Positions 6,968-44,972 of a DNA stretch of 64,000 nt are shown here, piece by piece. How positions within the stretch are numbered: position 1 is the stretch's first letter; each line of letters opens with the position of its first letter. Both the position numbers and the translations under genes were made by a program. This DNA is from Clostridia bacterium (GTDB lineage: Bacteria > Bacillota > Clostridia > Oscillospirales > CAG-272): contig JAFTME010000069.1 of assembly GCA_017452545.1 (NCBI GenBank), positions 31,980 to 95,979 on the forward strand. Direction: 5' to 3'. The notes beneath the pieces are model-generated. The model was given only the letters and a program-made list of their open reading frames with translations. It was not told where the DNA came from and did not search any database.

Positions 6968-7135
6968 GAATTCTGAAATTTGTGAATTTTTATGGCAAAA
7001 TCCTTGAATTCTTTATTTTTCTCTTGCATTTTTTGCTCAAATATGGTAACATAAATAAAGATGCTTTGGCGTAGGTCTACACATGGCAGTTCGCTCATAC
7101 ATTGTTTTTACTACAATGAAAAGCGAGGGCTGCCT

Positions 7136-7861
7136 ATGTCGCCACGTCGCACGCACGTACGAAAACAAACGAACCGCAGTATTCCGATCACGCCCGTCAT
7201 TTCTTTTTACATCCGTTTGATGATCAAAGGCTCTGTCGATTTCTTTTTGGGCGTTGCAGCTTGTTATATCGCTTCACGCATTCCGGATGCGCACATTCGT
7301 TTGCCCCCCAATGTACTTGCTGAGGCGATCTGCTATGAGCAAGTCTGCCCGTCTGTTTTTCGTGTTATAGTTATCTATTTTCCTGCTGTTCTGACTGCGG
7401 CCGCTTCCCTGTCGTTCCCCATTCTTTTTTTATATGTGCTGGGTGTTCGACGGTATGATTTTTTTCCATATTCCCGTATATGGAATTTCATATTTTGCGC
7501 CTCCTACGGAGCTGTATTTTATCAGATGCTTGACCGGCTTTACAGCAACGGATCGGAGTACGGCGGCGTATGGGTCGTGATGGCTGCAGCTTTGCCGATC
7601 ATCTGTTTTTTCGGTAGCTTTGCGTTCGAGCTTCAGTCTTTGTTGCAGTCCAACCGCATCGCTGCCCGAGGGCTTCCGATTCCGTGTATTCGAGGAAACG
7701 GTGCGATTCGATATGCATTTTATGAACAGCCAACAGCAAAGGGATTAAGGCAGGACATTCGGCGCTACACAAATGCTGCCCGGCGTTATATTGTGCAATC
7801 GTTTGTTACCAATTTGTTTTTGTTTTACAGTATTCTGATGCTTCAATATTTTACAGCATAA
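7136..7861 (+). CDS. Hypothetical polytopic membrane protein
   Basis: The ATG at 7136 is preceded by GAGGG. Several hydrophobic spans. A possible TTGCAT-17-TAACAT promoter lies upstream. No family recognised. Confidence 0.5.
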   Translation: MSPRRTHVRKQTNRSIPITPVISFYIRLMIKGSVDFFLGVAACYIASRIPDAHIRLPPNVLAEAICYEQVCPSVFRVIVIYFPAVLTAAASLSFPILFLYVLGVRRYDFFPYSRIWNFIFCASYGAVFYQMLDRLYSNGSEYGGVWVVMAAALPIICFFGSFAFELQSLLQSNRIAARGLPIPCIRGNGAIRYAFYEQPTAKGLRQDIRRYTNAARRYIVQSFVTNLFLFYSILMLQYFTA

Positions 7862-7895
7862 TGCTGATTTTCCTCTTCGCGAAAGGAGCTTTGTT

Positions 7896-8876
7896 TTGGA
7901 AAGCCAAAAGAAAAAGAAGTTTAAGCTTTTTGACATGAACCGCGACGGTAAAGGCGTTGAAAAGGGTGAGGATACTACCCCTACGCTGAAGTTCTATTTC
8001 AAGCTGTTCAAGCGCAGATTTTCTTCCTTATTGAGCTTGAATCTTTTGATGAATTTTCAGATCATCCCCATTATCGTTGCCATTCTGGCTTATTTTTTCA
8101 CACATATGACCACCTCGCAGACCTCTGCCGTTTTTGCGCCCGTCTATGGCGTATCCCTGATCGATCCCTCGATTACAACGGCAACGCTGCTCTCCGGTCA
8201 TGGAATTCAGCAGTTGATTCCGATCTTCAATAACCCTGCCTATATCGTAATCGCAATTTGCGCGCTGTTTCTTGTGCTGACGCTTGGCTGGCAAACGGTC
8301 GGAGCGACCTACGTGTTGCGTGGTATGGTGCGTCATGACCCTGTTTTTGTATTCTCCGATTTCTTTTACGGAATCAAAAAGAATTTCAAGGAAGGCTTTG
8401 TCTATGGCTTGATCGATGCCTTGATCATTATTGTCCTCGCCATTGATTTTATGTTCTTTTATGCAAGAACCGGCACATCAATGGGCAACAACCTGATGTT
8501 CTGGGCGATCACAGCATTGATCATTCTGTATCTTTTCATGCGTCCGTATATCTACATGATGCTGATTACCTTTAACATGAAGCTTTCGAAGATTCTCAAG
8601 AATGCACTGATCTTTTCCGCGCTCGGTATCAAGCGCAACATCATGGCAGTGCTTGGCATCGTTCTGGTTGCCGGATTGAATCTGGCGCTGGTCATGATCT
8701 CCCCCGCCGCCATTATGCAGGTCACGCTCATCCTTCCGCTTCTCTATTTCTGTGCATTTGCCGGGTTTACCGTCAATTATGCGGTATATCCCATCATCGA
8801 CCGCTATATGATCGAACCGTGCCGTGAGGAGCCTGAAGTACAGGATCCGCGAGATGATCTGTACGACGTAGAGTAA
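7896..8876 (+). CDS. Membrane protein, YesL/DUF624-like (tentative)
   Basis: TTG start at 7896 with an AAAGGAG RBS 7 nt upstream. About 6 TM segments. The N-terminal region (FKLFKRRFSSLLSLNLLMNFQIIPIIV) resembles DUF624 proteins, judged from memory only. Confidence 0.55.
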   Translation: MESQKKKKFKLFDMNRDGKGVEKGEDTTPTLKFYFKLFKRRFSSLLSLNLLMNFQIIPIIVAILAYFFTHMTTSQTSAVFAPVYGVSLIDPSITTATLLSGHGIQQLIPIFNNPAYIVIAICALFLVLTLGWQTVGATYVLRGMVRHDPVFVFSDFFYGIKKNFKEGFVYGLIDALIIIVLAIDFMFFYARTGTSMGNNLMFWAITALIILYLFMRPYIYMMLITFNMKLSKILKNALIFSALGIKRNIMAVLGIVLVAGLNLALVMISPAAIMQVTLILPLLYFCAFAGFTVNYAVYPIIDRYMIEPCREEPEVQDPRDDLYDVE

Positions 8877-15003: not shown

Positions 15004-18000
15004 TTACAGGAAGCTGAACAGAGTCATCTGATCCGTTTCGTCGATGTTATCCAGTACGTTGTTACGGCGAAGAATTTCAATGACAGCCTTAGTCAGCTTG
15101 GCGCGGATCTGCAGATCCTCGACCGAGAAGAAGGGCTCCTCGGTGCGCGCCTTTTCAATGTTCTCTGCCGCCGTATCGCCAAGACCCGGCAAGGACGAGA
15201 ACGGCAGTCGGATGGCACGGTCACCCTCGGGACGATAACAATGTGCCTCGGATTTATTGATATCAATGGGAAGGAACTTAATGCCTCTTGCATATGCCTC
15301 CATGACCAACTGGAAGGTCGAGATCGAGCTTTGCTCCTTGGGAGAAGCCTCTTTTCCTCGCTTCTCAACGTCCTTGATATAATTCTCGACGTATTTCTTT
15401 CCGCGAAGAACAATCTCGGCGTCAAAACCGTTGGGAGCTACGGTAAACATGGCTGCATAGAAAACCGTAGGCATATAGATCTTATACCAGCCAAGACGAA
15501 TGGCAGACATAACATAAGCAGCTGCATGTGCCTTGGGGAACATATACTTGATCTTTTTACACGATCCGATGTACCATTCGGGTACGTCATGCGCGCGCAT
15601 TTCCGCCTCCCACTCGGGTGTCAGCCCCTTACCCTTTCGGACGCTTTCCATGATCTTGAAGGACATGGCATTATCAAGTCCGTAGCGGATCAAGTCAAGC
15701 ATGATACCGTCACGGCATCCGATAACCTTGGAAATATCACAAATACCTTCCTTGATCAGATCCTGTGCATTTCCGAGCCAAACGTCCGTGCCGTGTGTCA
15801 GACCGGAGATCTGAAGAAGGTCAGCGAAGTTTTTAGGCTTTGCATCAATCAGAACCTGCTGCAAAAAGCGAGTACCCATCTCGGGGATTCCCCAGGTACC
15901 AACCTGGCAGCCGCCAATATCATCAGGAGAAATACCGAGCGGAGCGGTCGACTGGAACAGCTCGTAAATAGAAGCATCGTTCATTTTAACGTCCATTACG
16001 CTCGTACCGGAGTAACGCTCCAGCCACTTGTATTTGGTTGGCATATCGTGTCCAAGCTCGTCCAGCTTAAGCAGCGTATCATGCAGATACTCAAAGGTAA
16101 AGTGCGTGGTGACGATGTCGGATTTTGGGTCGTCCGCAGGATGCTGTACAGGACAGAAATCATAGATTTCGTATTCTTTGGGAACAACGACGATACCGCC
16201 GGGATGCTGACCGGTGGTACGCTTGACGCCCACGCAGCAGGAAACCAGACGGTTCATTTCGGAGCGGCTGAGCGATACGCCCTTTTCCTCCAGGTACTTG
16301 AGGATAAAGCCGTACGCCGTTTTATCCGCAACCTCTCCGATGGTACCGGCACGGAAGACGTTTTCCGCACCGAACAGCTCCTCAGTGTATTTATGGACCT
16401 TTCCCTGTACCTCGCCCGAGAAGTTCAGGTCAATATCGGGAGATTTATCACCGTAAAAGCCGAGGAAGGTTTCAAACGGGATATCATGTCCGTCGCCGAC
16501 CAGCTTGGTGCCACACTTAGGGCAGTTCGCGTCGGGCAAATCGAAGCCGGAACCGACGCTGCCGTCGGTAAAGAACTCGGAATGCTTACAATTGGGGCAA
16601 TAATAATGCGGCGGAAGCGGATTGACCTCGGAAATTCCCGCGCACGAGGCGACAAAGGAAGAACCGACCGAGCCACGCGAGCCTACAAGATAGCCTTGAC
16701 TTTCGCTATACCAAACCAGCTTTTGCGCAATCATATAAAGAACGGCAAAGCCGTTTTTAATGATGGACGTCAGCTCCTTTTCCAGGCGCTTGCCGACAAT
16801 TTCGGGCAACGGCTTGCCGTATTGACCCTCGGCATGCTCGTAGCAGATGCGCTGCAGATCCTCCTCGGCACCGTCCATGTGCGGTGTGAAGGTTCCCTTG
16901 GGGAACGGACGAATATCGCTCTCGATCATATCCGCGATCATGTTGGTGTTGGTCACGACGACCTCGTAAGCCTTTTCCTCGCCAAGGTAGGAGAATTCCT
17001 CCAGCATTTCCTCGGTCGTGCGGAGATACAAGCCGATGTCTCTGTCCGCATCCTTGAATTTCATACCGGCAAGCAGAATCTTTCTGCCGACCTCATCCTC
17101 GCGGTTGAGAAAGTGTGCGTCGCAGGTGGCTACGACCGGCTTACCGTACCGCTCACCGAGTGCGACGATGCGGCGGTTGAGATCGCGCAGCCCCTCGTCA
17201 TCCGCAATTTTCCCCTCCGCAACCAAAAAACGGTTGTTGCAAATGGGTTGGATTTCAAGATAGTCATAGAAATTGACCAGATCCTCGATGACCGCCTCGG
17301 GCTTGTTGTCCAGAATGGCCTGTACCAGCTCGCCCGATTCACAGGCAGAGCCTATGATCAGACCCTCACGGTACTTCTCAAGCTCGGTTTTGGGTATTCT
17401 CGGCTGACGGTGATAGTAATTGAGATAACTGAAGGAGACCAGACGATAAAGATTTTTCAAGCCAACCTTGTTTTTTACCAGCAGAACCTGGTGATAGGTC
17501 TTGAGCTTAAGCGGATTGGCATTGGCGAGCATTTCGCGCTGGAGTGCCGCATAGTCATGCAGTTCGCTTTCCTTCATTTTGTTGACCATGCAGAAGAAGA
17601 TCTGTGCAAGCATGTCGGCGTCATCGCAGGCACGGTGGTGATTAAAATCGCCAAGACCGTAATATTTGGCAACAACGTCCAGCTTATGAGATTTCAGATC
17701 GGGATTGATAAAGCGGGACAGCGCGACGGTATCCAGATATGCGTTCGGGAACGGCAGCCCACACAGCTCGGCATTGTAACGGATAAATCCAACGTCGAAT
17801 TCGGCATTGTGTGCGATCAGAAGCTTAGGCTGCTTGCCCTCTTCGTTGCCGATAAACGCGAAAAATGCCTCCAGCGCCTGCTTGACCTTGGGTGCATCGG
17901 CTACCATTTCATCGGTAATAGAGGTCAGCTTTACGATATCCTCGGGGATCGGAACCTCGGGGTTGACAAAGGTGTTAAAGCTATCAATGACCGCACCGTT

Positions 18001-19473
18001 TTTGATACGAACCGCTCCGATCTCGGTAATTTTGCAGGTTCGGTTGGAAAGACCGGTGGTTTCGATGTCAAAAACGATGCATTCATCGTCAAAGGCGCCC
18101 TCGTATCTGCCAAACAGAGCGCTCGCCTTGTCATCGACGAAATACCCCTCCATACCGTAGATCACCTTCTGCCCCAGCTTTTCCGATGCCAGCATCGCCT
18201 TCTGATAAGCCTGTACGTTGCCGTGGTCGGTAATGGCGATAGCAGGCATTCCCCATGCATTGGCGGTCTTAACGACGGTATCCGGTGGGATCAGCGCGTC
18301 CATAGAGGACATCGTCGTATGAAGATGCAGCTCCACGCGCTTGACGGGAGCGTTATCGACGCGCTTGATCTTTTTGATTTTCATCGCAGCACTGTAGAAA
18401 AAGGAGAAGTCAAGATCAAGTCCATTTTTATGCGATTCTTTTTTTATGTAGCCGTAGAGCGCGACAGACATTCCGTCCTTGATCGTATCACCGAGCTCCT
18501 TTGCTTCCTCCGGTGTCAGTCCGTACTTTTTGACCTCAATGGAGGAATTTCCGTCAAACACAGAGAAAACAACGTTATACTTATCGCCGGAGCGCGTGGT
18601 ATCGGCGGTATAGCCGAACACGTCACCGACGATGACAAGTCCGCGCTGCGCCACATTGAAGGAGGCGATAACCGCAGGCGTGCCAATTTCAAAGGCGTCG
18701 CCGATCAGTACCTCGGGCTCCCGAAGATCAAATTTAGAAAAGCCAATGGTGCAAATTCCGTCCTCAACGACGGCTTGCGGCGGCGTTTCGGTATAAATGG
18801 AAGAGATACGAGGCAAGACCTGCTTGTCATCCCCTCCGCTCTCGCCGCCATCCCTTGCGTAATCCGGATTGGCGCGACGCGTTTCCATCATGCGGTTGTA
18901 TTCCACCTCGGCCTTGGCGATCTGCTGATCGATCGTTTCCAAGCGACGGTTGCGGCTTTCCTCTACGGTGTTGCGGTAGAGCTGCTGGCTGTGCTTGATC
19001 TCAACATGGCACTGCAGACCGAATTCGCTGAAAATAATCCTCTCAATGACCTGCGGTGTCTGTCCGTTTTCCATCAGACGAATACCGCCGTCCACCTCAA
19101 ATGGAACCTCGATCACCAGCGATCGCTCATTCAGCGTCGCTTTATACTGTGCAAAAAAGCCGCGCGCGACAATGCCGATGCGCTCGGTTTCTTTGAGAAT
19201 TTGCGGAATATACTCCTGCGTAAACAGAGTTTGCGGATAATGAGGCAGTATTTTGACATACTGCAGGTCGTACGCACGGCAGATCTCCTCCTCGATGGTG
19301 TAAAGATCGTCCTTATCTACAAGCGAAGGAAAGCTTGCACAAATTTCAAGGAGGCGCTTTTCCTTATCCGCACGCACGGAAAAATCGGTCACATTGCTCA
19401 AAATGCCGTCAGCATATGCGCTCGGCTGATATTTTTTCAGTATTTCAAATATAGATCTTTGGTTTTCTTGCAT
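15004..19473 (-). CDS. polC: DNA polymerase III alpha subunit, PolC type
   Basis: 1489 aa. PHP domain (VELHLHTTMSSMDA), inserted DEDDh exonuclease (FDIETTG, HNAEFD, HRACDDA), Zn finger (CPNC...CPKCG) and polymerase core. Confidence 0.97.
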   Translation of the reverse strand: MQENQRSIFEILKKYQPSAYADGILSNVTDFSVRADKEKRLLEICASFPSLVDKDDLYTIEEEICRAYDLQYVKILPHYPQTLFTQEYIPQILKETERIGIVARGFFAQYKATLNERSLVIEVPFEVDGGIRLMENGQTPQVIERIIFSEFGLQCHVEIKHSQQLYRNTVEESRNRRLETIDQQIAKAEVEYNRMMETRRANPDYARDGGESGGDDKQVLPRISSIYTETPPQAVVEDGICTIGFSKFDLREPEVLIGDAFEIGTPAVIASFNVAQRGLVIVGDVFGYTADTTRSGDKYNVVFSVFDGNSSIEVKKYGLTPEEAKELGDTIKDGMSVALYGYIKKESHKNGLDLDFSFFYSAAMKIKKIKRVDNAPVKRVELHLHTTMSSMDALIPPDTVVKTANAWGMPAIAITDHGNVQAYQKAMLASEKLGQKVIYGMEGYFVDDKASALFGRYEGAFDDECIVFDIETTGLSNRTCKITEIGAVRIKNGAVIDSFNTFVNPEVPIPEDIVKLTSITDEMVADAPKVKQALEAFFAFIGNEEGKQPKLLIAHNAEFDVGFIRYNAELCGLPFPNAYLDTVALSRFINPDLKSHKLDVVAKYYGLGDFNHHRACDDADMLAQIFFCMVNKMKESELHDYAALQREMLANANPLKLKTYHQVLLVKNKVGLKNLYRLVSFSYLNYYHRQPRIPKTELEKYREGLIIGSACESGELVQAILDNKPEAVIEDLVNFYDYLEIQPICNNRFLVAEGKIADDEGLRDLNRRIVALGERYGKPVVATCDAHFLNREDEVGRKILLAGMKFKDADRDIGLYLRTTEEMLEEFSYLGEEKAYEVVVTNTNMIADMIESDIRPFPKGTFTPHMDGAEEDLQRICYEHAEGQYGKPLPEIVGKRLEKELTSIIKNGFAVLYMIAQKLVWYSESQGYLVGSRGSVGSSFVASCAGISEVNPLPPHYYCPNCKHSEFFTDGSVGSGFDLPDANCPKCGTKLVGDGHDIPFETFLGFYGDKSPDIDLNFSGEVQGKVHKYTEELFGAENVFRAGTIGEVADKTAYGFILKYLEEKGVSLSRSEMNRLVSCCVGVKRTTGQHPGGIVVVPKEYEIYDFCPVQHPADDPKSDIVTTHFTFEYLHDTLLKLDELGHDMPTKYKWLERYSGTSVMDVKMNDASIYELFQSTAPLGISPDDIGGCQVGTWGIPEMGTRFLQQVLIDAKPKNFADLLQISGLTHGTDVWLGNAQDLIKEGICDISKVIGCRDGIMLDLIRYGLDNAMSFKIMESVRKGKGLTPEWEAEMRAHDVPEWYIGSCKKIKYMFPKAHAAAYVMSAIRLGWYKIYMPTVFYAAMFTVAPNGFDAEIVLRGKKYVENYIKDVEKRGKEASPKEQSSISTFQLVMEAYARGIKFLPIDINKSEAHCYRPEGDRAIRLPFSSLPGLGDTAAENIEKARTEEPFFSVEDLQIRAKLTKAVIEILRRNNVLDNIDETDQMTLFSFL

Positions 19474-28223: not shown

Positions 28224-28252
28224 ATTATATCACAATCACATCTTAATTGCAA
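28224..28252 (-). promoter_or_regulatory. Sigma-A-type promoter of rpsB-tsf
   Basis: On the minus strand: TTGCAA, 17-nt spacer, TATAAT. It lies about 150 nt upstream of rpsB. Confidence 0.55.
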
Positions 28253-28275: not shown

Positions 28276-28581
28276 TTATTTACAATTATCTCGTTTTTCT
28301 TCCCGTTCTCCGGGATCCGGCATAACCATGCTGCATATCTCCTGCTCGGTCAACCGCACCAAAATGGTGTCGTCACCAAAGCATTCGATCTTGCACCACG
28401 GAATGAAGAGATATTCCGTTCTTCCAAAGGCAAGAAATCCCTTACTCTGCGGAATCATCAGGGACAGCACCGTTGCACATTTGGGGTCAAAAGAGATCTC
28501 CGTTGCAAATCCCAGCCGTCGTCCGTCGCACAAATTGATAATTTCCTTTTTGCAAAGAGAAGCCGTCGTCATTTGTCGCAT
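28276..28581 (-). CDS. ylmC: YlmC/YmxH family sporulation protein (PRC-barrel)
   Basis: KEIINLCDGRRLGF...DTILV pattern, typical of YlmC/YmxH. Confidence 0.8.
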   Translation of the reverse strand: MRQMTTASLCKKEIINLCDGRRLGFATEISFDPKCATVLSLMIPQSKGFLAFGRTEYLFIPWCKIECFGDDTILVRLTEQEICSMVMPDPGEREEKRDNCK

Positions 28582-28639: not shown

Positions 28640-31471
28640 TCATATGTCCTCACGGAAGAGTTTTTCCTTTAAAAACGTGTGAATCCATCCCTTGATCCTC
28701 GGGCAAACGAGGCGGGAAAGCAGCAAGCTCCCGATAAAGAACGGAATGCTCAGTAAGGAAAATAGTAAGATTTTCCATGAGAATCCGAGACAGCCAAACA
28801 AGGCCGCCGGACCGGGGAGCGCAGAGACAACAAGCACCAAGCCAAGAACCAAAAACAGCACTGTGCCTACGGTAATGCGGGAAAATCTGGAGCTTGATGC
28901 AGGCGAGGAGGATTGCAGGAAGAACAAGATCACCATGGTTTGCGTAATGGCAAGCGACAGAAAGACGAAGACCTCGTAGCCGGCGCCCGAGGATGCCACG
29001 CCGCAGCTTCGCAGAATAGCGCCCAGCACCGTGATCAAAACGCCGGTAGCGATGGATGCACAGATCCAAGCCGGTCTTTTTTTGATCGGTGAGTGAAAAT
29101 ACCCACGGTCCTGTTGTACCGTTTGCAGCTCGGCAGCATCGTATCTGTGAAAAGCAAGGATCAGAATATAACCGAGATCAATGATCAGACCGCCGAACAC
29201 AAGCAGCGCTGCCGATTGCGCCGCAACACCGAACAGAAGCGGCAACAATACGGCAGTCATGCGCAAAAACTGTGTAAATATCAAATACTGCAGCACCAGC
29301 ACCATGTTTTTACGAATGGCACGAGCGGTGTACAGCGCATTGATCACACCGTCCAGCGTTCCGCCCGATTCCGTGCAACGGCGAACCAGAACGTCCGCCT
29401 CTCTCAGCGCAGCCGTATCGCCGCTGCGGTTGCGACGCTGTGAGTCATTTTCAAGTGGCGTTGGCTTACGCTCGGTCACTACGTCCGATTGGAAGATGTG
29501 ATCATCGCAGCAAATGTGGAGGTCTGCCCGATGCTCCTGTGCATCTCTCCAACGTAAGGAAAGTGCGGCAACCGTTCGTTTTTTATGGTGACAATAGCCG
29601 ATCAACGACTCCACTTCCCTGTCCGTCAGTCCGGCGATCACGCGTGAGTGTTCAAAGACCTCCGTAAGCGATTCTCCGTTTTGTCTGATTTTTGAAGCAT
29701 AGCTGACCTCGCTCGTCTTGCGGATCCATCCGCTGTTCAGCAGCTGCTGCACGTCATAGGCATCCTCACTTGACAAAAACAAGGTCGTGCGAACACCGCT
29801 GCTTTGCAGCTGCTCCAGGTTTTCGATCAGATCCGGATCATACGCCTGCTTGAATACGATCATTCCCTCAAAAACGACTGTTTCGTTTTGCACAGAAGCA
29901 AACAGCAGCGTGCGGCTTCCCTGCACGTGAAATTTACGATAAATCCCTTGCAGCATAGCTTTGGCATTCTCGTCCAGCGCGACTGTCTCACCGCCGACCG
30001 TCTTTGCCTCACAGCGCTCCAGCAAAAGATCGTCGGTACCGCAAAGAATACACCGCTGCTCCTGTACGTTGTCACGGGAGCGAAGAGCGACCTCGACACC
30101 GCCCGTATACTTGTCCGAAGGAGCCAGTGAAAGCGTACGGATATCAAGCGCCACAGGATCAAAGGCGATATTCTCCTGCAGCTCCTTTATTCCCTGCATC
30201 ATAGCAGTCAGGGGAGAGCCCTCCCCACTCGCCAAAGCAGAGCCTGCTTGCATACGCATCGCCTTTTCATACAGATAGACCGTAGTAAAAAAGTGCGTGA
30301 TGGCCTCGCTGCTCCAACGACCGCTGTGATAAATATCATCTGACGTATAAATCGCATGTGGGTGCATCTTTGCATCGGTAGCCGCGATCGTATCATAGAC
30401 AAACAGCTCCGACATATGACCGAGCTGCTCAAGCGAGGCGTAATTTTTAATAATCGCCGCCTTTTCCTGCGGTTGCTTGAGTGCCGCACGAACCAATCCG
30501 CAGGCGGCAACAATGCGCCCCATGACCATCAGCTGCTCACTCATCGAGGCAACTCCGAGAGACAGCGCCAAAAAGAATACGTCAAAGATCTGCAGCTCGC
30601 CGCCTCCGGACAGAAGACCGATCAGCGTAATGGGAAGCAGCAGAGCGCACATACCGAGACTGTAGCGGCTGACGTAGCGCTTCATTTTGACCACGCTCGG
30701 CACCTCTCCTACCTCACAGGATAGCGCGTGCGGACCGAGGAAGGCGGCAAGATAGGTATCCTCTCCCGTTGCTACGGCAAAGGCTACCGCTCTTCCACCA
30801 AGAATCACCGAGCCCGCCGTTAACATGTTCTCTCTCAGCGACGGAAGCGTGCCATCGTCTACGGGATCGAGCGTGCAAGCACGCTTGCCCATAGCTGTAT
30901 ATTGCAGTGCGTGATCTGTTCCATAATACAACGCCTTGACGAAAAGATCCGTCGCGCTGACAATACGTGCATCACAAGGGATAACGTCACCCTCACGAAG
31001 GATAAGCAGATCGCCGGGAACGATAGAGGTCGACTCGGCAAGCAGGTGCTGCCCCGCACGGATAATATGAACACGCGGCGCAGAAAGTCCGGCCATCGCC
31101 TCTCTGATCTGCTGTGTTTTTTGGTATGCGATAACGGTAACCGTTGTGCTGGCACAAAGCACGATCAGCACGGCAATGACGGCATTCCAGCGGGAGAAGC
31201 ACAGCGCGATCACACAAATCAGCAGCAACAGCAACAGTGACGTATCGGAGAAGATCGTTTTGATGCAGGCGCCTGTACTGACGGGCTCGGGATGAAACAG
31301 CTCGTTTCTTCCCAACCGTTCCAGGCGGGATCGACTGATCTTGAGTCCGAGCCCCCGACTGCGATCCGTCTTCAGACGCCGCTCCAGTTCTTCAATTTCC
31401 ATGGCGTGCCACGGTGTGGTTGCGTATTTGCTCAAACGGATCGCCTCCTTTCCATACATGAAATCGAACAC
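28640..31471 (-). CDS. P-type ATPase homologue with degenerate catalytic motifs
   Basis: Cation_ATPase_N-like start, A-domain PGDLLILREGDVIPCDARIV and multi-TM N- and C-terminal blocks. No DKTGT, TGES, PEGLP or GDGxND motif is present (see finding). Confidence 0.8.
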   Translation of the reverse strand: MFDFMYGKEAIRLSKYATTPWHAMEIEELERRLKTDRSRGLGLKISRSRLERLGRNELFHPEPVSTGACIKTIFSDTSLLLLLLICVIALCFSRWNAVIAVLIVLCASTTVTVIAYQKTQQIREAMAGLSAPRVHIIRAGQHLLAESTSIVPGDLLILREGDVIPCDARIVSATDLFVKALYYGTDHALQYTAMGKRACTLDPVDDGTLPSLRENMLTAGSVILGGRAVAFAVATGEDTYLAAFLGPHALSCEVGEVPSVVKMKRYVSRYSLGMCALLLPITLIGLLSGGGELQIFDVFFLALSLGVASMSEQLMVMGRIVAACGLVRAALKQPQEKAAIIKNYASLEQLGHMSELFVYDTIAATDAKMHPHAIYTSDDIYHSGRWSSEAITHFFTTVYLYEKAMRMQAGSALASGEGSPLTAMMQGIKELQENIAFDPVALDIRTLSLAPSDKYTGGVEVALRSRDNVQEQRCILCGTDDLLLERCEAKTVGGETVALDENAKAMLQGIYRKFHVQGSRTLLFASVQNETVVFEGMIVFKQAYDPDLIENLEQLQSSGVRTTLFLSSEDAYDVQQLLNSGWIRKTSEVSYASKIRQNGESLTEVFEHSRVIAGLTDREVESLIGYCHHKKRTVAALSLRWRDAQEHRADLHICCDDHIFQSDVVTERKPTPLENDSQRRNRSGDTAALREADVLVRRCTESGGTLDGVINALYTARAIRKNMVLVLQYLIFTQFLRMTAVLLPLLFGVAAQSAALLVFGGLIIDLGYILILAFHRYDAAELQTVQQDRGYFHSPIKKRPAWICASIATGVLITVLGAILRSCGVASSGAGYEVFVFLSLAITQTMVILFFLQSSSPASSSRFSRITVGTVLFLVLGLVLVVSALPGPAALFGCLGFSWKILLFSLLSIPFFIGSLLLSRLVCPRIKGWIHTFLKEKLFREDI

Positions 31472-31513: not shown

Positions 31514-33895
31514 TTACATACAATCAATGGCAAGCTCGCCGTCACGAACGGACAGACGCACCTGCGTGATCGCCAGCATACTGCTTGCGATGATACGCTC
31601 AGCGAGCGGATCCTCCACGCTTCGCTGGATATAACGGCGCATATTGCGGGCACCGTATTTATGCGAGAAGGAATTCTTTGCGATCAGCAGAACCGCCTCC
31701 TCGGTATACGTGAAGGTCATATCCTTTTCGGCAAGCGCCGTCGTCAGATCTCCCAGCATAATGCGGGCGATTCTGACAAAATCCTGCTCGTCGAGCGAGC
31801 GGAAGGTAATGATCTCGTCGATACGATTCAAAAACTCGGGGCGCAGGAATGCCGACAGTGCCTTTTCCGTCTTTTGCTCTTCTCTGCTTTGCTCACTTCC
31901 GGAGAATCCTACCGTGCCGGACGAATGCGTTGAGCCCGCGTTGGTCGTCATGATCAGGACGGTATTTTCAAAATTGACCGTTCTTCCTCCCGCATCGGTA
32001 ATGCGACCGTCGTCAAGGATCTGCAAGAGAATGTTCATAACGTCGGGGTGTGCTTTCTCGATCTCGTCAAACAAAACGACGCTGTAAGGACGTCTGCGGA
32101 TCTTTTCGGTCAGCTGCCCTGCCTCGTCATAGCCGACGTATCCGGGAGGCGCTCCGATGATGCGGGATACGGAATGCTTTTCCATAAATTCTGACATATC
32201 GAGTCGGATAAGCGTCTCGGGGGAGTTGAACAGCTGTGCTGCCAGCGTTTTGACAAGCTCGGTCTTACCAACACCCGTAGGTCCTGCGAATATAAAGGAA
32301 ACCGGCTTGCGCTTATAGGAAATGCCCGCGCGATTGCGCTTGATGGCTCTGACGACCGCGCTGACCGCCTCATCCTGACCGATGATGCGGGAGCGAATCT
32401 GATCCTCCAGCTGATTGAGGCGCACGTACTCGTTTTCGCTGACCGTGCTTGCGGGAACTCCCGTCCAGACCTCGATGACCTGCGCCAGATCCTTAACACC
32501 GAGTGCGACCTTGGCGCACTCGGGCTCAATTTCATGCAAGCGTTCGGAAAGCGACAGCTCCTGCGCTCGGATGCGTGCCAGCTGCTCGTATCTTTGCTGA
32601 GAAAGCGCATCGTCTGCCGCCGTTTCGCCCTCCAATGCCTCACGCTCTGCCTTCAGACGCAGCAGCTTATCGCGGATCTCATAGGATTCGTTGATCAGCG
32701 CCGTGTTGAGCGAAAGATAGGATGCGGCCTCGTCCAAAAGGTCGATCGCCTTGTCCGGCAGATAGCGATCGGTAATATAGCGCTCGGAGAGCGTTACCGT
32801 GCGAAGCAGCAGCTCCTCGGGAATGATAACTCCGTGGAAATCTTCATAATAGTGCTTGATGCCGCGCAGCATATCGACGGTATCCTCGACCGAAGGCTCC
32901 TCGACGATTACAGGCTGAAAACGGCGCTCCAGAGCCGCGTCCTTTTCGATAAACTTGCGATATTCGGTCAGCGTCGTTGCGCCGATGACCTGAATCTCAC
33001 CGCGAGAGAGTGCGGGCTTCATGATATTGGCGGCATTCATGCTGCCCTCGCTGTTGCCCGTTCCGACCAGATTGTGCACCTCATCAATGACGAGAATGAT
33101 ATTTCCCGCCTCCTTGACCTCGTTGATCAAGCCTTGAATACGCGCCTCAAACTGACCGCGGAACTGCGTACCCGCGACAAGCGAGGTCAGATCAAGCAGG
33201 TAGATCTGCTTGTTTTTCAACTTGAAGGGAACGTCACCCTTGGCAATGCGAATGGCGAGCGCCTCCGCGATGGCGGTTTTACCGACACCCGGCTCACCGA
33301 TCAGACAAGGATTGTTTTTCTGACGGCGGCAAAGCACCTGGATCACACGCGCAAGCTCACGCTCACGACCGACGATATTGTCGATCTTTCCCTGTGCCGC
33401 GCTGCGGGTCAGATTGTGACAATGCGCACTTAAAAACTTAAACTTCTTTTCGTTATTCTTTTCTTTCTTATCGGCCTTTTCTCCGCTCGACTGAGGAGGA
33501 CGCTGCTGCGGTGCCGGCTTTGCATCGTTGCCGTCGCCCGAGGCAACCAGTCCTGCCTGCTCAAACAGCTTGCGGAAATCAAACGTAGGAACGGTGTTTT
33601 CGCTGCTGCGCTGGGTGTTTTGCGCATCACCGGATCCCTCCTCGTCGTCGGTATCCGTCTCTGCATCCTCGATCTCCTCGGGCGACATCATAGCACCGAG
33701 CTCGCTTTCCATCCCGGCAAGCTGATCGGGCGTAAGCCCCATCTTGCTCAGCGCATCACCCATCATATTTTCAATGGGGAGTCCCAGCTCGCGAGCGCAC
33801 TGAATGCACAGTCCCTCGCTCTTTTTTTCGCCGTTTTCCACCTTGGTTACAAAAATGATTGCCATTCTTTTACGGCATCTGCTGCATTTGATCAT
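31514..33895 (-). CDS. Clp/Hsp100 AAA+ ATPase, ClpE-like (N-terminal zinc ribbon)
   Basis: N-terminal CSRC...CIQC. Two AAA+ modules ([16 protein letters not shown]). ClpP-docking-type tripeptide VGF (SGTVGFSG). No Clp_N repeat. Confidence 0.88.
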
Positions 33896-34703: not shown

Positions 34704-35954
34704 TTATGGTAAATCGACGGTTACGCAAATGGCACGCGCCTGTCCGCAAAGCAGCACCTCATCGTCGCTGTACGGCAGCACGGTAAGATAGCTTCCTTCG
34801 ATCGGCGCGGCAGAGATCGGAAATACAGACGCCTGCTCATAAATACTCAAGGCGTTCTGAAAGCGTAGGCAAAGGGTATCTCCCAGTAAAACGGCATCGA
34901 GCACGCGCTCGTCCGTTACCATATTATAGCTCATATCTCCGTTTTTGTCAAATACCGTTACGTTGGTACCTGCGTTATAATTATTGGAACGCGAAAGCAT
35001 CGTACATCCGTCTGCATTCAGCGTCACGGTATCGACCGTATCCGGATCGACGGGATAAAAGGCAAGCTCTGTTCCCTTTTCATCAAGACAATACAGACCG
35101 AGCGTTGTATACAGCATCAGAATATCCTCACTCGTATACGACAGCGCGATCGGATAGCAATCCTGCAGAGTTACCGTTTGGTATTGCTGCTCCCCGGGCG
35201 TGCACAGCGCAAGCTCGGTTGCAAGCTGACCTACGTTTGAGCTGACGCTTGCGACAGCCATCTGCCTGCCGCTTGGACGGATCGCCGCGCAAACGGCGTA
35301 CTCCTTGAGATATAGCGTATTCACCGGTCGGAACATATCGTCATACAAAACGATTTCGGATGCGTAGGTGGTTCCGTCCGTAATGATGCAATAATAACCC
35401 GCATCGGAAATGGCAGCCGAGCGGATCGGCGTTGTCGTTTTTTTCTCGTGAATGGAGGAAAAGGAATTGTACAGCGCGTACTCGTCACCGCCGAGATCGT
35501 ATGCCAGAAGATAGCGTCCCGAGGGCAGCAGCCGCGGCGTGTGGTAGGTAACGGAGTCGGTGTAGCTTTCTCGCCCCGTCGCCGTAAACACCGTCAGATT
35601 TTCTCTGCCAAGCACCGCCAAGCCTCCGCGGTAAAGCGCGTAATCGTTGTTCTCATCGGAGGCGTAGGTTAGTGATTCCGATGCCCCGGCCTCACCAACG
35701 ATGACCGAGGTGTTGAGGTCCTTGATAAAATACGTCATGTTCTCAATCGAGAGACGGTCGGTTCCCGTCAGCAGCGTGACCGCAAGAAAGACACCGAGCA
35801 TCATATAAATGACAAACTGTGCCGAGGCAAAGCGAAGCGACATCTCACGGTAATACGGTGTTTCCGCCACCTCACCGGTGATCGGCTGTGTGAGAGTAGC
35901 GTGGGGCGTCGTTCCCCGAAGCAATCGGAAAAAACGGTCCTTAAGACTCATCAT
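34704..35954 (-). CDS. Hypothetical single-pass membrane protein (DUF5711-like, tentative)
   Basis: One TM (FVIYMMLGVFLAVTLL) followed by about 340 aa of beta-rich sequence with repeated blade-like segments. The family assignment is from memory only. Confidence 0.55.
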   Translation of the reverse strand: MMSLKDRFFRLLRGTTPHATLTQPITGEVAETPYYREMSLRFASAQFVIYMMLGVFLAVTLLTGTDRLSIENMTYFIKDLNTSVIVGEAGASESLTYASDENNDYALYRGGLAVLGRENLTVFTATGRESYTDSVTYHTPRLLPSGRYLLAYDLGGDEYALYNSFSSIHEKKTTTPIRSAAISDAGYYCIITDGTTYASEIVLYDDMFRPVNTLYLKEYAVCAAIRPSGRQMAVASVSSNVGQLATELALCTPGEQQYQTVTLQDCYPIALSYTSEDILMLYTTLGLYCLDEKGTELAFYPVDPDTVDTVTLNADGCTMLSRSNNYNAGTNVTVFDKNGDMSYNMVTDERVLDAVLLGDTLCLRFQNALSIYEQASVFPISAAPIEGSYLTVLPYSDDEVLLCGQARAICVTVDLP

Positions 35955-41108: not shown

Positions 41109-44100
41109 ATGAAAAAAATGTTTCGAACGGTCGTCCTTCTGGTGCTGTGCCTCTCACTTGTGATGAGTGCATTTGTAGGCTGCAAAACACCGGAAGAAGA
41201 CGATCCCCCTGCAAAGGAAATGCTTACTATCATTGACGGAGCAACCGATTATAAGGTGATCCGCAGTGATTTGAGCACCAAGGATGTCACCATGGCAGCA
41301 GTCGATCTGCGTAAGGCTCTGATTGCCGCAACCGGTGTCGAAATCGCCATTGAATCCGACTATGTAGAGCGTGGTAAGGAGATCCCCGCCGACACGCTTG
41401 AAATCCTGGTAGGCGCTACCAACCGCGCCGAAAGCGAGCAGGTGCTTGCAACGCTTGGTGAAAACGAATACAGCATCAGCGTCGTCGGCAACCGCGTCGT
41501 TATCGTCGGCTCGACGGACGAAGCGACCATCGCCGCAGTCGATGCGTTCATTTCTCAGATCCTCGGCTACAACAAAGAAACCGAAACCTATGCAGTCAAT
41601 AAGCTGCAGATGGAAAAGGATTATTCCAAGAAGGCAACCTTTGTTCCTGCCCCTGTTGAGGATGATCCCTATACTCCTCCCGTGTTTACTCCCGTAGAGG
41701 GCGAGCAGAACAAGCCCACCTTCTCCCCCGCCAAGTATATCGTTCCTACATATTCCATTGAAAACGGCCTGTACGTTCAGAATTACAAAGCGTTTGATCT
41801 GCAGGGTGTCAGAACCACCTTCCAGACGGGCGCATCCTACGCGGACAGCCGTGCGATCAACTCCGACTCCATCATGGTCTATTCGACCTCTGCCGGAACC
41901 TTCAAGAGCTGGTACGACTCCGAGGATTTCGTCATCGATATGATGATCGCGATCAACCGTGCCAACCAGAACTACCTTAATCTGGATCCCGACAACAAGA
42001 ACGATATCCAGACCGACTCTGCCGGCAACTATCTCGAGCACTCTACCGGTGGCTCCTGGTATATGGTTCCCTCTGAGAACTGGATCGAGTACGTTTGGTC
42101 CACCATGCTGCTGCCCATGATCGAGCAGTATCACCCTCAGACCATCGCGCTGGAGGAGCCCGAGATGTGGATCCGCTCCGGCTATTCTCAGACTTTCAAG
42201 GACGAATGGGAAGCGTTTTACGGTGAGGAATGGGAAGCTCCCAACTCCTCCGCAGCGGCCAACCTGAAGGCAAACCTGCTCAAGACTTATTTGTTTGAGC
42301 GTATCCTTGAGGAGCTGTGTGCCCGCATTGAAGAGGTCTCCCCCAATACGCAGGTCTACATTGCAACGCACAGTACCGTCAACTACGCAGCCTGGTCGAT
42401 CACAGCAGGTCTGAATACCTATCTGGCACTGGATTGCCTGGACGGCGTTATCGGTCAGACCTGGGCAGATACGCATAATTCCAAGTTCCCCTACAATGGC
42501 TCTTCCATTAACGATAACTTCACCAATGCTTTCATTGAGTATTCCTCCTACGTAGACTCTGTAGAGGGCACCAATTTCTATGCACTGGCTGACCCGATGA
42601 TGGATAACACCAGCAGAACCGAAGAGGGCTGCCAGTATATGTACCGTCAGTCTATCGCAGCGCAGCTCATGCAGCCCGAGATCCATCGCTTTGAGATCCT
42701 TCCCTGGGTCGACCGCGCATTTGAAAACGTTTCCGGCGCGTACCGCACGGTACAGTCCTCCATCTTTGCGATGCTCAACGATCTGGGCGGCGAGGAGGTC
42801 ACGCTGAGAGCAGGTACTCCCGGCATCGCATATCTCGCATCCGATTCTCTGTCCTGGATGAACACCGGCGCCGGCTGGGCTTACAACCCCACCGACGGTA
42901 TGTACGGTCTTTGCGCACCGCTGGTTCGTGATGGCATTCCCGTCAAGATGAAGGCGATGGAGCAGATCTACACCGCAGAGGATCTCAGTGGCGTCACGCT
43001 GCTGCTGGCAAGCTTTGATACCTCTGTTCCGCTGACCGAAGAGGTCAATGTGGCAATCGCAGATTGGGTCAAGGCAGGCGGTACGCTGCTCTACGTTTCC
43101 GGTTATAACCAATATTGGGATATCGACGATTATTTCTTCTGGGCGGATGACATTACGCCGCTGTATAACCTCTTGCGTCACCTCGGTCTTGAGAACATCA
43201 AAGTCAAGACGACCGATAACGGCGTTCAATCCAACTCCCGCCTCTCCGCTGTGGATGACTACCTTGAAATCTTCAACGGTCACACACTTACCTCCTACGC
43301 TGCCGGCGCGATCACCTTTGAGGGCGCCGAGACGCCTCTGCTTAAGGCAGGCGATAAGACGATCGCGTTTGAAGAAAGCGTCGGCAAGGGTCAGATCGTC
43401 GTATGCGGTATTCCCACCGCTGCATTTGCCGTCTATAAGGGCGGTGCCCCCATGCTCCGTACGCTGGTCGAGTATGCACTGGATTACACCGACATGAACT
43501 ATGTCTCCTCCGATATGATGGTCGTTAAGCGCGGCAAGTACGTTATCGCACACGCGTTTGATACCGCAGAGGAGCTGGAAGGCACGTACATCAATCTCTT
43601 CGACCCTTACCTTTGTGTCATGGAGGATCCCACCGTTCCCAAGGAGGACAGCCTTGTTCTCGTTGACATCACCGACATTGATCTCTCCGTTCCTCGCCTC
43701 GGATTTACCTCCGGTGAGCTGAAGGGTGAGGTTGAGGAGACTGCAAACACCACGACCTACGTTGTCACCGGCGCCGGCAACTCTATTGTTGCAAACCGCC
43801 TGCTGGCTCCCAAGGGCAAGTATCCGCAGAAGGTCACCATCACCAACGAGGACGGCAAGGAGCAGGTCATGCTCTCCTTCGTATGGGACGATGACTCCAA
43901 CTCCGTCCGCTTTACCTTCGACGCGGCCGTCAAGCCCTTGACCGTTACCGTAACCTGGGGCACCGAGAAAACGCTGCTTTCCTCTGCCGGCTATGTATAT
44001 GAAGAGGTCATGATCCTGGCAAACAATCAAAACCTTGATGCAGATTATCTGATCACAAACACCGCACAGGCAAACAACGGCCTGCGCTACTGCGACCTTG

Positions 44101-44972
44101 CAGGACAGCTTGTTTATAAGTTTGATACCACCGAATATGATTCTCCCGTCTACCACTTCTCTACCTCTCAGAACTACATCTTTGAGGTTTCCGGCGACGG
44201 TAAGAACTGGACTATGATCGCCGATTATTCCAAGGGTGGCACAGTTCCGCATATCCGTGATGCAAGCAACGCTACCACCATCGTTATCGATCCCATCGAT
44301 TATGAGGACGTGGACGACTCCGGTACCCTTTACGTTCGCGTACGCAACAGCAATACCTCGATGGGCTGGGGCGGTACCGTATCCAGAATCGTTATCCGTC
44401 ATAAGGTAGAGGCTGAGGCTACTACCGGTGAGACCGGCGAGTGGCTGGTCGGCATTAACCCGACCTCCGCAATCGACGACAAGGGCATTTCTACTCCTGC
44501 TGCACAGGCAGACGAAAAGAAGTATCTGGTTAAGTCCGCAAACGGTATCAACACCTACCACCGTAAGGTCATGACCAACGCAAGCAACCTCGACCTTGAT
44601 TTCATTGTCCTCAATACGGCTGCATCCAACCCCAGCATTCGCTTCTGCGACAATGTCGGCCAGGTTGTTTACAAGTTCGATCTGAGCGATATGAAATCCT
44701 TCGATCTCTCGCTCCGCATTTATCAGAACTATCTGCTCGAGGTCAGCACCGACAACAAGAACTGGGAGGTCGTAGCCGACTATTCCCAGGGCGGCACGAT
44801 ACCGCATTTGACCACCGGTGGTAATGACGTAACCATCGAAATCGACGTATTCGAGTATGCAGACAAGGGTACTCCCTATTTCTACGTGCGCCTGTCCAAT
44901 ACCAATACCGCTATGGGTTGGGGTGGCTCGATCCGCTATTTTGAAATGGATTACACCAAGCCTGCGAAATAA
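41109..44972 (+). CDS. Large secreted lipoprotein of unknown function (1287 aa), glycoside-hydrolase-like architecture suspected
   Basis: GGAAGGAG RBS. Signal peptide plus lipobox (LSLVMSAFVG-C). N-terminal alpha/beta domain reminiscent of GH N-terminal domains, a central region, and two C-terminal repeat modules. Confidence 0.85.
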   Translation: MKKMFRTVVLLVLCLSLVMSAFVGCKTPEEDDPPAKEMLTIIDGATDYKVIRSDLSTKDVTMAAVDLRKALIAATGVEIAIESDYVERGKEIPADTLEILVGATNRAESEQVLATLGENEYSISVVGNRVVIVGSTDEATIAAVDAFISQILGYNKETETYAVNKLQMEKDYSKKATFVPAPVEDDPYTPPVFTPVEGEQNKPTFSPAKYIVPTYSIENGLYVQNYKAFDLQGVRTTFQTGASYADSRAINSDSIMVYSTSAGTFKSWYDSEDFVIDMMIAINRANQNYLNLDPDNKNDIQTDSAGNYLEHSTGGSWYMVPSENWIEYVWSTMLLPMIEQYHPQTIALEEPEMWIRSGYSQTFKDEWEAFYGEEWEAPNSSAAANLKANLLKTYLFERILEELCARIEEVSPNTQVYIATHSTVNYAAWSITAGLNTYLALDCLDGVIGQTWADTHNSKFPYNGSSINDNFTNAFIEYSSYVDSVEGTNFYALADPMMDNTSRTEEGCQYMYRQSIAAQLMQPEIHRFEILPWVDRAFENVSGAYRTVQSSIFAMLNDLGGEEVTLRAGTPGIAYLASDSLSWMNTGAGWAYNPTDGMYGLCAPLVRDGIPVKMKAMEQIYTAEDLSGVTLLLASFDTSVPLTEEVNVAIADWVKAGGTLLYVSGYNQYWDIDDYFFWADDITPLYNLLRHLGLENIKVKTTDNGVQSNSRLSAVDDYLEIFNGHTLTSYAAGAITFEGAETPLLKAGDKTIAFEESVGKGQIVVCGIPTAAFAVYKGGAPMLRTLVEYALDYTDMNYVSSDMMVVKRGKYVIAHAFDTAEELEGTYINLFDPYLCVMEDPTVPKEDSLVLVDITDIDLSVPRLGFTSGELKGEVEETANTTTYVVTGAGNSIVANRLLAPKGKYPQKVTITNEDGKEQVMLSFVWDDDSNSVRFTFDAAVKPLTVTVTWGTEKTLLSSAGYVYEEVMILANNQNLDADYLITNTAQANNGLRYCDLAGQLVYKFDTTEYDSPVYHFSTSQNYIFEVSGDGKNWTMIADYSKGGTVPHIRDASNATTIVIDPIDYEDVDDSGTLYVRVRNSNTSMGWGGTVSRIVIRHKVEAEATTGETGEWLVGINPTSAIDDKGISTPAAQADEKKYLVKSANGINTYHRKVMTNASNLDLDFIVLNTAASNPSIRFCDNVGQVVYKFDLSDMKSFDLSLRIYQNYLLEVSTDNKNWEVVADYSQGGTIPHLTTGGNDVTIEIDVFEYADKGTPYFYVRLSNTNTAMGWGGSIRYFEMDYTKPAK
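44022..44405 (+). repeat. C-terminal module copy 1 (about 128 aa) of the lipoprotein
   Basis: NLDADYLITNTAQ..RYCDLAGQLVYKFD..QNYIFEVSGDGKNWTMIADYSKGGTVPH..YVRVRNSNTSMGWGG. By eye it aligns with copy 2 at roughly 40-45% identity. Confidence 0.8.
44577..44954 (+). repeat. C-terminal module copy 2 (about 126 aa) of the lipoprotein
   Basis: NLDLDFIVLNTAA..RFCDNVGQVVYKFD..QNYLLEVSTDNKNWEVVADYSQGGTIPH..YVRLSNTNTAMGWGG. Confidence 0.8.

Follow-up and report, generated by a model that had tools for sequence, protein, structure and literature searches.

A probable catalytically dead branch of the P2A-type ATPases encoded next to a ClpE-like unfoldase gene in uncultured gut and rumen Clostridia

Aspartyl-phosphate chemistry is what sets the P-type ATPase superfamily apart. 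In the P5A-ATPases (Spf1/ATP13A1), which act as transmembrane-helix dislocases, the P-type fold is used in membrane-protein quality control instead of ion transport. In the plant plasma-membrane P3A H+-ATPase AHA2, Arg655 on M5 and Asp684 on M6 form an intramembrane pair (PMC10654040). Here, we analyzed a stretch of 64,000 nucleotides from a Clostridia bacterium (assembly GCA_017452545.1, contig JAFTME010000069.1; the whole stretch is called the window), in which a gene on the minus strand at 28640..31435 encodes a protein that by descent is a P2A member of this superfamily. The protein retained the architecture of a pump and lacked the residues of a pump's chemistry, and we conclude, with a probability of about 0.85, that it is a conserved, catalytically dead P2A-type (SERCA/PMR1/LMCA1/YloB-like) pseudo-pump that is selectively maintained.

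The gene lies in an uninterrupted minus-strand open reading frame (ORF) at 28640-31471, which comprises 943 amino acids when counted from a GTG codon, as was done in a preliminary description of this DNA. Direct reading of the sequence identified a TTG codon at 31435-31433 (-) preceded by the ribosome-binding site AAGGAGG at 31450-31444 with a spacer of 8 nucleotides, so that the whole initiation region occupies 31433..31450 (-). Counted from the TTG, the ORF encodes 931 amino acids and equals database entry MBQ7319303.1, titled 'MAG: cation-transporting P-type ATPase [Clostridia bacterium]', and the N-termini of homologues ('MSKYA...') agree with this start. On these grounds, translation almost certainly begins at this TTG and not at the GTG at 31471, and the earlier length of 943 amino acids is corrected to 931. 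Residue numbers below refer to the 931-residue protein; adding 12 gives the ORF numbering of the preliminary description.

Two Pfam models matched the protein, namely E1-E2_ATPase (PF00122; 1.7e-18, 67.2 bits against a cutoff of 28.1), which covered the actuator domain and M3-M4 with the invariant scaffold motifs PGD and GDxxPxDxR (residues 117-318; 30482..31087 (-)), and Cation_ATPase_N (PF00690; 7e-8, 32.4 bits against a cutoff of 20.4) at the N-terminus (residues 9-76; 31208..31411 (-)). The HAD/hydrolase, N-domain and C-terminal Pfam models did not match this protein even at E <= 1. Among 36 diverse members of its family, 36 matched PF00122 and 31 matched PF00690, none matched the HAD model PF00702 and one matched PF13246. 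The best NCBIfam model was TIGR01522 (PMR1-type Ca2+-ATPase), with 124.7 bits against a curated cutoff of 798.3; TIGR01116 reached 63.8 bits against 703.4, and TIGR01494 (P-type ATPase superfamily) 30.4 bits against 62.3. The closest solved relative was Listeria LMCA1 (1.9e-20), followed by SPCA1, Na,K-ATPase, MgtA and SERCA, and significant alignment to LMCA1 and SPCA1 ended at about residue 376 of the 943-residue ORF. The nearest canonical sequences were Bacillota 'SERCA-type' Ca2+-ATPases.

Structure prediction extended this likeness over the whole protein. An AlphaFold2 model built with a 73-sequence alignment (predicted local distance difference test, pLDDT, 88.4; predicted template modeling score, pTM, 0.88) comprised an N-terminal domain, an actuator domain rich in beta structure, a P-domain of Rossmann-like fold into which the N-domain is inserted, and ten long helices, with low confidence only at residues 400-404 and 651-655 and at the C-terminus. 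Foldseek searches of the PDB with this model returned exclusively P2/P3B-type pumps over the full length, including SPCA1, SERCA, LMCA1 and MgtA at E values of about 1e-36 (9e-37 for 7yai, SPCA1); TM-scores were 0.75 for SERCA E1-sarcolipin, 0.73 for SERCA-phospholamban and 0.72 for SPCA1 CaE1. The predicted N-domain-like fold (residues ~361-535; 29831..30355 (-)) lacked both the KGAPE Lys and the adenine-stacking Phe, and a family-specific insertion of ~26-30 residues in the P-domain (residues ~645-670; 29426..29503 (-)), identified by alignment, was predicted to be disordered (pLDDT ~50). Helices M7-M10 were predicted at residues 783-926 (28658..29089 (-)). Within the actuator domain, scaffold residues were nearly invariant across the family (P120, R126, G141-D142, G149-D150, P153, D155, R157, K184, N203, G214 and G224). 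The model thus predicts that the complete pump architecture is kept, with N-terminal domain, actuator, P/N headpiece and ten membrane helices. Together, the Pfam matches, the LMCA1 match and the full-length Foldseek matches bore out what the preliminary description had read by eye, that is, an end-to-end likeness to type-II cation P-type ATPases with a Cation_ATPase_N-like start, and the comparison with SERCA and LMCA1 that it had proposed showed the P2-type pump fold to be retained in the model.

The catalytic motifs were compared in three alignments, which agreed: a HMMER alignment to LMCA1, a 17-sequence MAFFT alignment with four canonical pumps, and a 154-sequence alignment of 142 family members and 12 canonical pumps, from which all counts out of 142 and 12 are taken. 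The phosphorylation motif (C/S)DKTGTLT read VYDTIAAT within a degenerate loop (LFVYDTIAATDAK, residues 344-356; 30368..30406 (-)), which placed Tyr347 in the column of the phosphorylated Asp; in the family, this column held L (48), P (22), I (18), V (15), M (13) or F (11), and Asp in 0/142. Just past the old phosphorylation strand, at residues 353-355, the family carried a [ST]-D-G motif of its own (T-D-A in this protein), with Asp at column 354 in 108/142 members. TGES was replaced by a GTDHALQY-type loop (GTDHALQYTA, residues 172-181; 30893..30922 (-)) in columns that were variable or gapped across the family and held T 12/12, G 12/12, E 12/12 and S 11/12 in the canonical pumps. On M4, SMSEQL (residues 297-302; 30530..30547 (-)) stood in place of PEGLP, with the Pro gone and the Glu kept as Glu300. 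The KGAPE Lys was Cys465 (F/R/V in the family), and the adenine-stacking Phe was Ser440 (A/S/gap). DPPR had become QAYD, with Glu in the Asp column in 100/142 members and Q/L/D in the Arg column, and TGD read LSS in this protein and was non-canonical across the family. The conserved P-domain Lys was Val608 (I 70, L 19, K 19 and V 18 of 142), and GDGxNDAP read SLRWRDAQ within the hinge remnant AALSLRWRDAQ (residues 623-633; 29537..29569 (-)), with its first Gly kept in 83/142 members and the rest variable. DDNF was replaced by a family-specific insertion of seven residues with Arg686 and GGG. No DKTG, GDGxND or HAD profile match was found anywhere in this protein. Pattern and profile searches of the family for DKTG, TGES, GDGxND and PEGL likewise gave nothing of relevance, and neither Pfam nor NCBIfam yielded a HAD/hydrolase match at a permissive E-value. 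The substitutions in TGES, PEGLP, DKTGTLT and GDGxNDxP listed in the preliminary description were all reproduced by the HMMER and MAFFT alignments, and every residue class that a pump needs to bind ATP, form the aspartyl-phosphate and dephosphorylate it has been replaced family-wide.

Two apparent survivors of these motifs were set aside. The pair F425-D426 had been suggested as an adenine-stacking 'PFD' by the 13- and 73-sequence alignments, and was rejected because the 154-sequence alignment puts the canonical Phe at the Ser440 column. The only DKTG string among the best 150 cluster representatives, in P0166, lay in an unrelated column near the DDNF region and was dismissed. Elsewhere in the family, one member (P0243) retained a TGES string at the actuator-domain position with DKTG gone, a TGES-like string occurred somewhere in 24 of the best 150 cluster representatives described below, and other members had long C-terminal extensions that brought them to 1102-1286 amino acids (relic or extended members are P0243 / L084 8001-10772; L022, L032 and P0180).

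The cation site was remodeled in a conserved manner and not simply eroded. Its columns came from the alignment, and we take them to correspond to N768, E771, N796, T799 and D800 in SERCA numbering. On M5 (residues 693-734; 29234..29359 (-)), the Asn equivalent to N768, which was N in 9/12 canonical pumps, was Gln in 106/142 family members (Gln722 here), and the Glu equivalent to E771 (E in 10/12) was Arg in 116/142 and Lys in 5/142 (Arg725 here). On M6 (residues 742-761; 29153..29212 (-)), the Asn equivalent to N796 (N in 11/12) was Gly in 106/142 (Gly749), the Thr equivalent to T799 (T in 10/12) was hydrophobic in the family (Ile752), and the Asp equivalent to D800 (D in 8/12) was still acidic, with Asp in 100/142 and Glu in 31/142 (Asp753). 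The M4 Glu was kept in the subclade of this protein and in 53/142 members family-wide. The view in the preliminary description that the ion-site motifs are lost was therefore only partly sustained: it fits the M5 Glu, now Arg725, and does not fit Glu300 on M4 and Asp753 on M6, which are retained.

Relatives were collected at three depths. A word-indexed search returned 13 full-length relatives at 24-91% identity, all of them without HAD Pfam domains, whereas every canonical match in the same search carried them. An exhaustive profile search over 1.84 billion cluster representatives was then used, of which the best 150, each scoring at least 399 bits, were examined. Nearly all of these representatives of 50% identity clusters were full length; 149/150 lacked DKTG and 150/150 lacked GDGxND, and the family thus comprises at least 149 clusters at 50% identity that share the motif loss. 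Among GTDB species representatives, 14 loci without DKTG were found, with 11 intact ORFs of 895-1183 amino acids and three that were cut by contig ends. In a neighbor-joining tree, one split parted 60 sampled family members from 70 canonical pumps, which indicates that the family is monophyletic, and mean internal distance was 0.84 in the family compared with 0.64 among canonical pumps. Members have so far turned up only within a single clade of uncultured Clostridia from the gut and rumen, in metagenome-assembled genomes (MAGs) labelled Oscillospiraceae, Ruminococcaceae or Clostridia. One locus under another label is L005 (JAGHTD010000169.1), titled 'Candidatus Colimorpha enterica' and filed by NCBI taxonomy under Bacteroidales incertae sedis; its Clostridia-type order of DUF5711 ... 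clpE (56% identical) ... pseudo-pump suggests a taxonomic misplacement or a binning problem.

Compared with its 91%-identical relative L083, the whole gene had a ratio of nonsynonymous to synonymous substitution rates (dN/dS, by Nei-Gojobori) of 0.10 at a dS of 0.43. By region, dN/dS was 0.13 in the actuator domain and 0.13 in the P/N region (residues 336-690), 0.02 in M3-M4 and 0.03 in M5-M10 (residues 691-931). Purifying selection maintains the gene and is strongest in the membrane helices. Enzyme homology with a retained fold, catalytic loss across orthologues, and purifying selection, by which pseudoenzymes are recognized, were all found here. The preliminary description had suggested a conserved non-catalytic derivative, and the intact full-length orthologues, the dN/dS of 0.10 and the family-wide loss of motifs support it; the orthologue survey that it had proposed showed the degenerate motifs to be common to the family, with dN/dS well below 1. 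Decay of the orthologues, which it had considered as well, was not what we observed, given 11 full-length ORFs in species representatives and at least 149 cluster representatives. A pseudo-pump derivative that looks reduced still further occurs at L086, where a 753-amino acid ORF (6338-8599 (+)) with ~9 transmembrane-like segments is situated between clpE (61% identical) and rpsB-tsf. It scored 70 bits against the family profile, over profile positions 252-579 (M3-M4 and P/N) and 683-899 (M5-M10) only, and lacked the M5 Arg.

All genes of the window from ~15000 to 40300 are on the minus strand. In order, these are genes for a methyltransferase, ecfA, ecfA', ecfT, truA, DUF5711, cvpA, the clpE-like gene and the pseudo-pump, followed by ylmC/ymxH, rpsB, tsf, pyrH, frr, uppS, cdsA, dxr and rseP, and onward to an ORF of 1489 amino acids; genes that were not themselves scanned are named according to the Pfam tables for their syntenic counterparts at L001, L002 and L084. 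Immediately upstream of the pseudo-pump, 31514..33895 (-) encodes a ClpE-like class-I AAA+ unfoldase with a zinc ribbon, two AAA+ modules and ClpB_D2-small. Its zinc ribbon has CxxC...CxxC at residues 4-7 and 30-33, with an McsA-N-like match at residues 3-38, and an acidic, Pro/Ser-rich linker of ~100 residues separates it from the first AAA+ module; Clp_N was not among the matches listed (25 Pfam families of 35 hits). Upstream of this gene is a conserved block with a CvpA-family membrane protein gene (PF02674; 33965..34684 (-)) and a DUF5711 protein gene (PF18975; 34704..35954 (-)). Downstream of the pseudo-pump by 58 bp is a YlmC/YmxH-family gene (28276..28581 (-); TIGR02888, 53 bits against a cutoff of 44.2). 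Both neighbors named in the preliminary description, YlmC/YmxH and a ClpE-like double-AAA+ protein, were thus confirmed.

The clpE junction recurred across the family. With tblastn of the window neighbors, 13 family loci were found to have a ClpE-like gene (56-75% identical) directly upstream, in most cases with cvpA and DUF5711 ahead of it, and the distance from the clpE stop to the pseudo-pump start ranged from a 4-nucleotide overlap to ~60 bp in 12/14 loci. The scan that gave the family loci also gave 66 canonical-pump loci, none of which had any of the clpE/cvpA/DUF5711-type neighbors (0/66), and canonical pumps beside clpE, which might have been evolutionary intermediates, were likewise found in none of these 66 loci. 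The downstream flank ylmC-rpsB-tsf was kept only in the close subclade, with YlmC synteny at L001-L003, L083 and L088, and varied by locus elsewhere, so that no downstream partner gene recurred at the family loci apart from ylmC within that subclade. At L084, a 236-amino acid ORF without a Pfam match overlaps the pseudo-pump stop by 11 nucleotides.

Seen from the side of ClpE, the DUF5711-(cvpA)-clpE block is far more widespread than the pseudo-pump, and an obligate two-way linkage was rejected on the 2/37 count given below. In a tree of ClpE, 15/15 pump-bearing loci fell in one clade together with only two pump-less loci, one of which has just 538 bp of downstream sequence; the pseudo-pump was present in none of the 31 loci of the sister clade. 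Most simply, the pseudo-pump would have arisen once, downstream of clpE, either through insertion or through in-situ inactivation of a P2A pump gene, and would then have been retained vertically in an operon-like arrangement, with occasional relocation (L001, L004) or loss (L087) afterwards. L001 (GCA_017456145.1, JAFTJZ010000026.1; 8001-10814, 39% identical) keeps the pseudo-pump-ylmC-rpsB-tsf block and has sugar-metabolism genes (UxuA, GFO_IDH_MocA and a pectate-lyase-like gene) in place of clpE upstream; the clpE junction can therefore be broken without losing the pseudo-pump gene.

The clpE-like gene and the pseudo-pump are probably co-transcribed. No intrinsic terminators were found between clpE, the pseudo-pump and ylmC, in a scan whose counts were no different from those of shuffled sequence, and matches to the CtsR operator upstream of clpE or the operon were at chance level, with none in the region. 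A perfect sigma-70 consensus (TTGACA-17 nt-TATAAT, 12/12) is present at 34923-34951 (-), within the 3' part of the DUF5711 gene and ~240 bp upstream of the cvpA start, and might serve cvpA, clpE and the pseudo-pump as an internal promoter. A promoter-like site with an extended -10 (TTGCAA-17 nt-TG-TATAAT, 10/12) at 28224-28252 (-), between ylmC and rpsB, probably drives rpsB-tsf, in which case the transcription unit upstream would end there. Two very long ORFs flank the housekeeping block, at 41154-44807 (-; 1217 amino acids) and at 15004-19473 (-; 1489 amino acids), and the latter is probably polC, judged by its place after the rseP and ispG positions.

A possible mode of action follows from these features. 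Since the Asp nucleophile, the Mg2+/phosphate motifs and TGES are absent, by the established mechanism of P-type ATPases there would be no E1P/E2P cycle and no active transport; with the E1/E2 phosphoenzyme cycle impossible, the protein would not pump. In place of a bound cation, the M5 Arg would face the retained M6 Asp or Glu and form an intramembrane ion pair, for which the Asn-to-Gly and Asn-to-Gln changes would make room. Such a charge pair would neutralize the former cation pocket and lock the membrane bundle without an ion. The protein would then serve as a static membrane scaffold or regulator, with its cytoplasmic headpiece as a binding surface. Because of the highly probable co-transcription with the ClpE-like unfoldase gene, we propose membrane-proximal ClpE(-ClpP) proteostasis as the likeliest process, in which the pseudo-pump might act as tether, adaptor or regulator, though we advance such a partnership with ClpE only tentatively. 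A bolder version, which we consider quite unlikely, is a two-part machine for membrane-protein quality control, in which the transmembrane bundle and the headpiece, both inherited from a pump, would hold the ClpE-like AAA+ unfoldase at the membrane. They would also offer membrane-protein substrates a lateral cleft or handover site, and the AAA+ motor would have taken over the ATP-driven work of the dead P-type motor. If true, bacteria would have an analogue of the P5A dislocase concept that is built from a pseudoenzyme.

Several observations weigh against this picture. The Arg725-Asp753 contact is one that we infer from homology to the SERCA site-I ligands, and the M4 Glu and M6 Asp kept in this protein may leave room for residual ion or proton binding. 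All family members come from uncultured MAGs or metagenomes. The pseudo-pump follows only 2 of the 37 metagenomic ClpE-type relatives with downstream sequence (at one further pseudo-pump locus beside the ClpE-type set, the clp gene is cut by the contig end), and the family loci L001 and L004 have no clpE upstream; ClpE therefore does not need the pseudo-pump, and the adjacency of the two could be that of a stable ancestral operon without physical interaction. Lastly, the L086 relative, in the same genomic slot, has lost its N-terminal domain and its actuator domain, so that parts of the headpiece must be dispensable.

Some of these observations would also suit a function of the membrane domain alone that is independent of ClpE, for example in sensing cations or protons or as a passive path, like a channel or uniporter, via the M4 Glu and M6 Asp, with the clpE adjacency a merely inherited gene order. 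The transmembrane segments are the most constrained part of the protein (dN/dS 0.02-0.03, against 0.13 for the actuator and P/N regions), the M6 acidic residue is present in 131/142 members and the M4 Glu is kept in this subclade, clpE mostly occurs without the pseudo-pump, and it is the actuator domain that L086 has lost while keeping transmembrane and P/N parts. However, the M4 Glu is found in just 53/142 members, the helix-breaking Pro of PEGLP is mostly gone, and the Arg that replaces the M5 Glu in 116/142 probably neutralizes the M6 acid. A role confined to the membrane would not require the whole headpiece, which is nevertheless kept, confidently folded in the model and under purifying selection, and the tight, sometimes overlapping clpE junction has persisted while the other flank was rearranged. 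We regard this alternative as about as plausible as the partnership with ClpE, and likewise advance it only tentatively. An envelope or sporulation membrane protein derived from a YloB-type Ca2+ pump and acting with YlmC/YmxH, for example in the forespore or spore membrane, is unlikely. It would explain the YlmC/YmxH-family gene 58 bp downstream, conserved there in the close subclade, and agrees with the nearest canonical relatives being Bacillota 'SERCA-type' Ca2+-ATPases and with the expression of Bacillus subtilis YloB during sporulation. The YlmC adjacency is limited, though, to that subclade (members at 26-40% identity and the 91%-identical L083), and the surrounding region is otherwise a housekeeping block (ecfA-ecfT-truA ... 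rpsB-tsf-pyrH-frr).

The two remaining alternatives concern the catalytic loss itself. With the fold intact, D348 right after the canonical position and an Asp at column 354 in 108/142 members, one could imagine that the protein still pumps at the expense of ATP, with catalytic residues that are shifted or non-canonical, e.g., D348 or D354. Column 348 is unconserved, however (G 83, D 33 and K 18 of 142), and a shift by one residue therefore does not rescue the phosphorylation motif; a displaced nucleophile at D348 was rejected for this reason. Moreover, the Thr and Gly of DKTGT, TGD, the P-domain Lys, the Asp and Asn of GDGxND, TGES, the KGAPE Lys and the stacking Phe have all been lost together, and not one of the 36 members examined gave a HAD profile match. 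Continued pumping is thus very improbable, and the preliminary description's own reservation, that intact motifs might lie at shifted positions, does not apply: DKTG, GDGxND and HAD matches were lacking and D348 was unconserved. Still less credible, to the point of being negligible, is a decaying pseudogene that has stayed open by chance. Loss of the catalytic motifs and the greater divergence of the family compared with canonical pumps (0.84 versus 0.64) are what such a gene might show, but a dN/dS of 0.10, at least 149 intact full-length cluster representatives, 11 intact ORFs in species representatives, a strong ribosome-binding site and a confidently folded model are not, nor is the conservation of residues specific to the family (R725, Q722, G749, [ST]DG and GGG).

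The pseudo-pump lacks every chemistry-based feature that defines a P-type ATPase, falls below all curated cutoffs except those of the actuator and N-terminal domain models, and should therefore not be annotated as a cation-transporting ATPase. Database labels such as 'cation-transporting' or 'magnesium-transporting P-type ATPase' are almost certainly wrong as statements of function, and this mislabel will carry over to reconstructions of metabolism and transport in gut Clostridia. In the literature searched, including a 2023 review on open questions in the superfamily, no P-type ATPase family was described as catalytically dead, although the survey of Chan et al. 2010 might mention one; so far as these searches reach, this would be the first described pseudoenzyme branch of the superfamily. 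Pseudoenzymes are already known in many families, and the function of this one is inferred only. As a natural experiment, it may reveal what a pump scaffold is capable of without catalysis, with an ion site that would be sealed by a built-in Arg-Asp pair. The operon-like link to a ClpE-type unfoldase offers a concrete functional lead in abundant uncultured bacteria of the gut and rumen.

Compared with the P2A pumps (LMCA1, SPCA1/PMR1, SERCA and YloB-like proteins), the pseudo-pump has a similar length, the same N-terminal/A/P/N/10-helix architecture and identical scaffold motifs in the actuator domain. Unlike them, it lacks the phosphorylated Asp, TGES, the KGAPE Lys, DPPR, TGD, the conserved Lys and GDGxND; its Ca2+ ligands differ, with Gln for the M5 Asn, Arg for the M5 Glu, Gly for the M6 Asn and a hydrophobic residue for the M6 Thr; it has a P-domain insertion of ~30 residues; and its clpE context is seen in 0/66 canonical-pump loci. 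The Arg655/Asp684 pair of AHA2 is matched in the family by an M5 Arg in 116/142 and an M6 Asp or Glu in 131/142 members, likewise with no metal-ion site. AHA2, however, is a fully active pump that carries every catalytic motif and in which the Arg modulates the release of protons, whereas the pair in the pseudo-pump would be a permanent plug, with the Arg at the SERCA E771 equivalent and not necessarily at the exact AHA2 position. Nor is the pseudo-pump a relative of the P3A pumps, as TIGR01647 scored just 59.7 bits. The resemblance to the P5A-ATPases is conceptual only and lies in the link of the pseudo-pump to a protein-unfolding machine; P5A enzymes are catalytically active and eukaryotic, and TIGR01657, at 28.9 bits, indicates no sequence affinity. 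The closest parallel in kind is with pseudoenzymes such as pseudokinases, pseudophosphatases and inactive AAA+ subunits, in which catalytic residues are likewise lost while the fold is kept under purifying selection. No P-type ATPase was found among the examples in the literature searched, and the pseudo-pump would be a membrane-transporter pseudoenzyme of ~930 amino acids with four domains retained.

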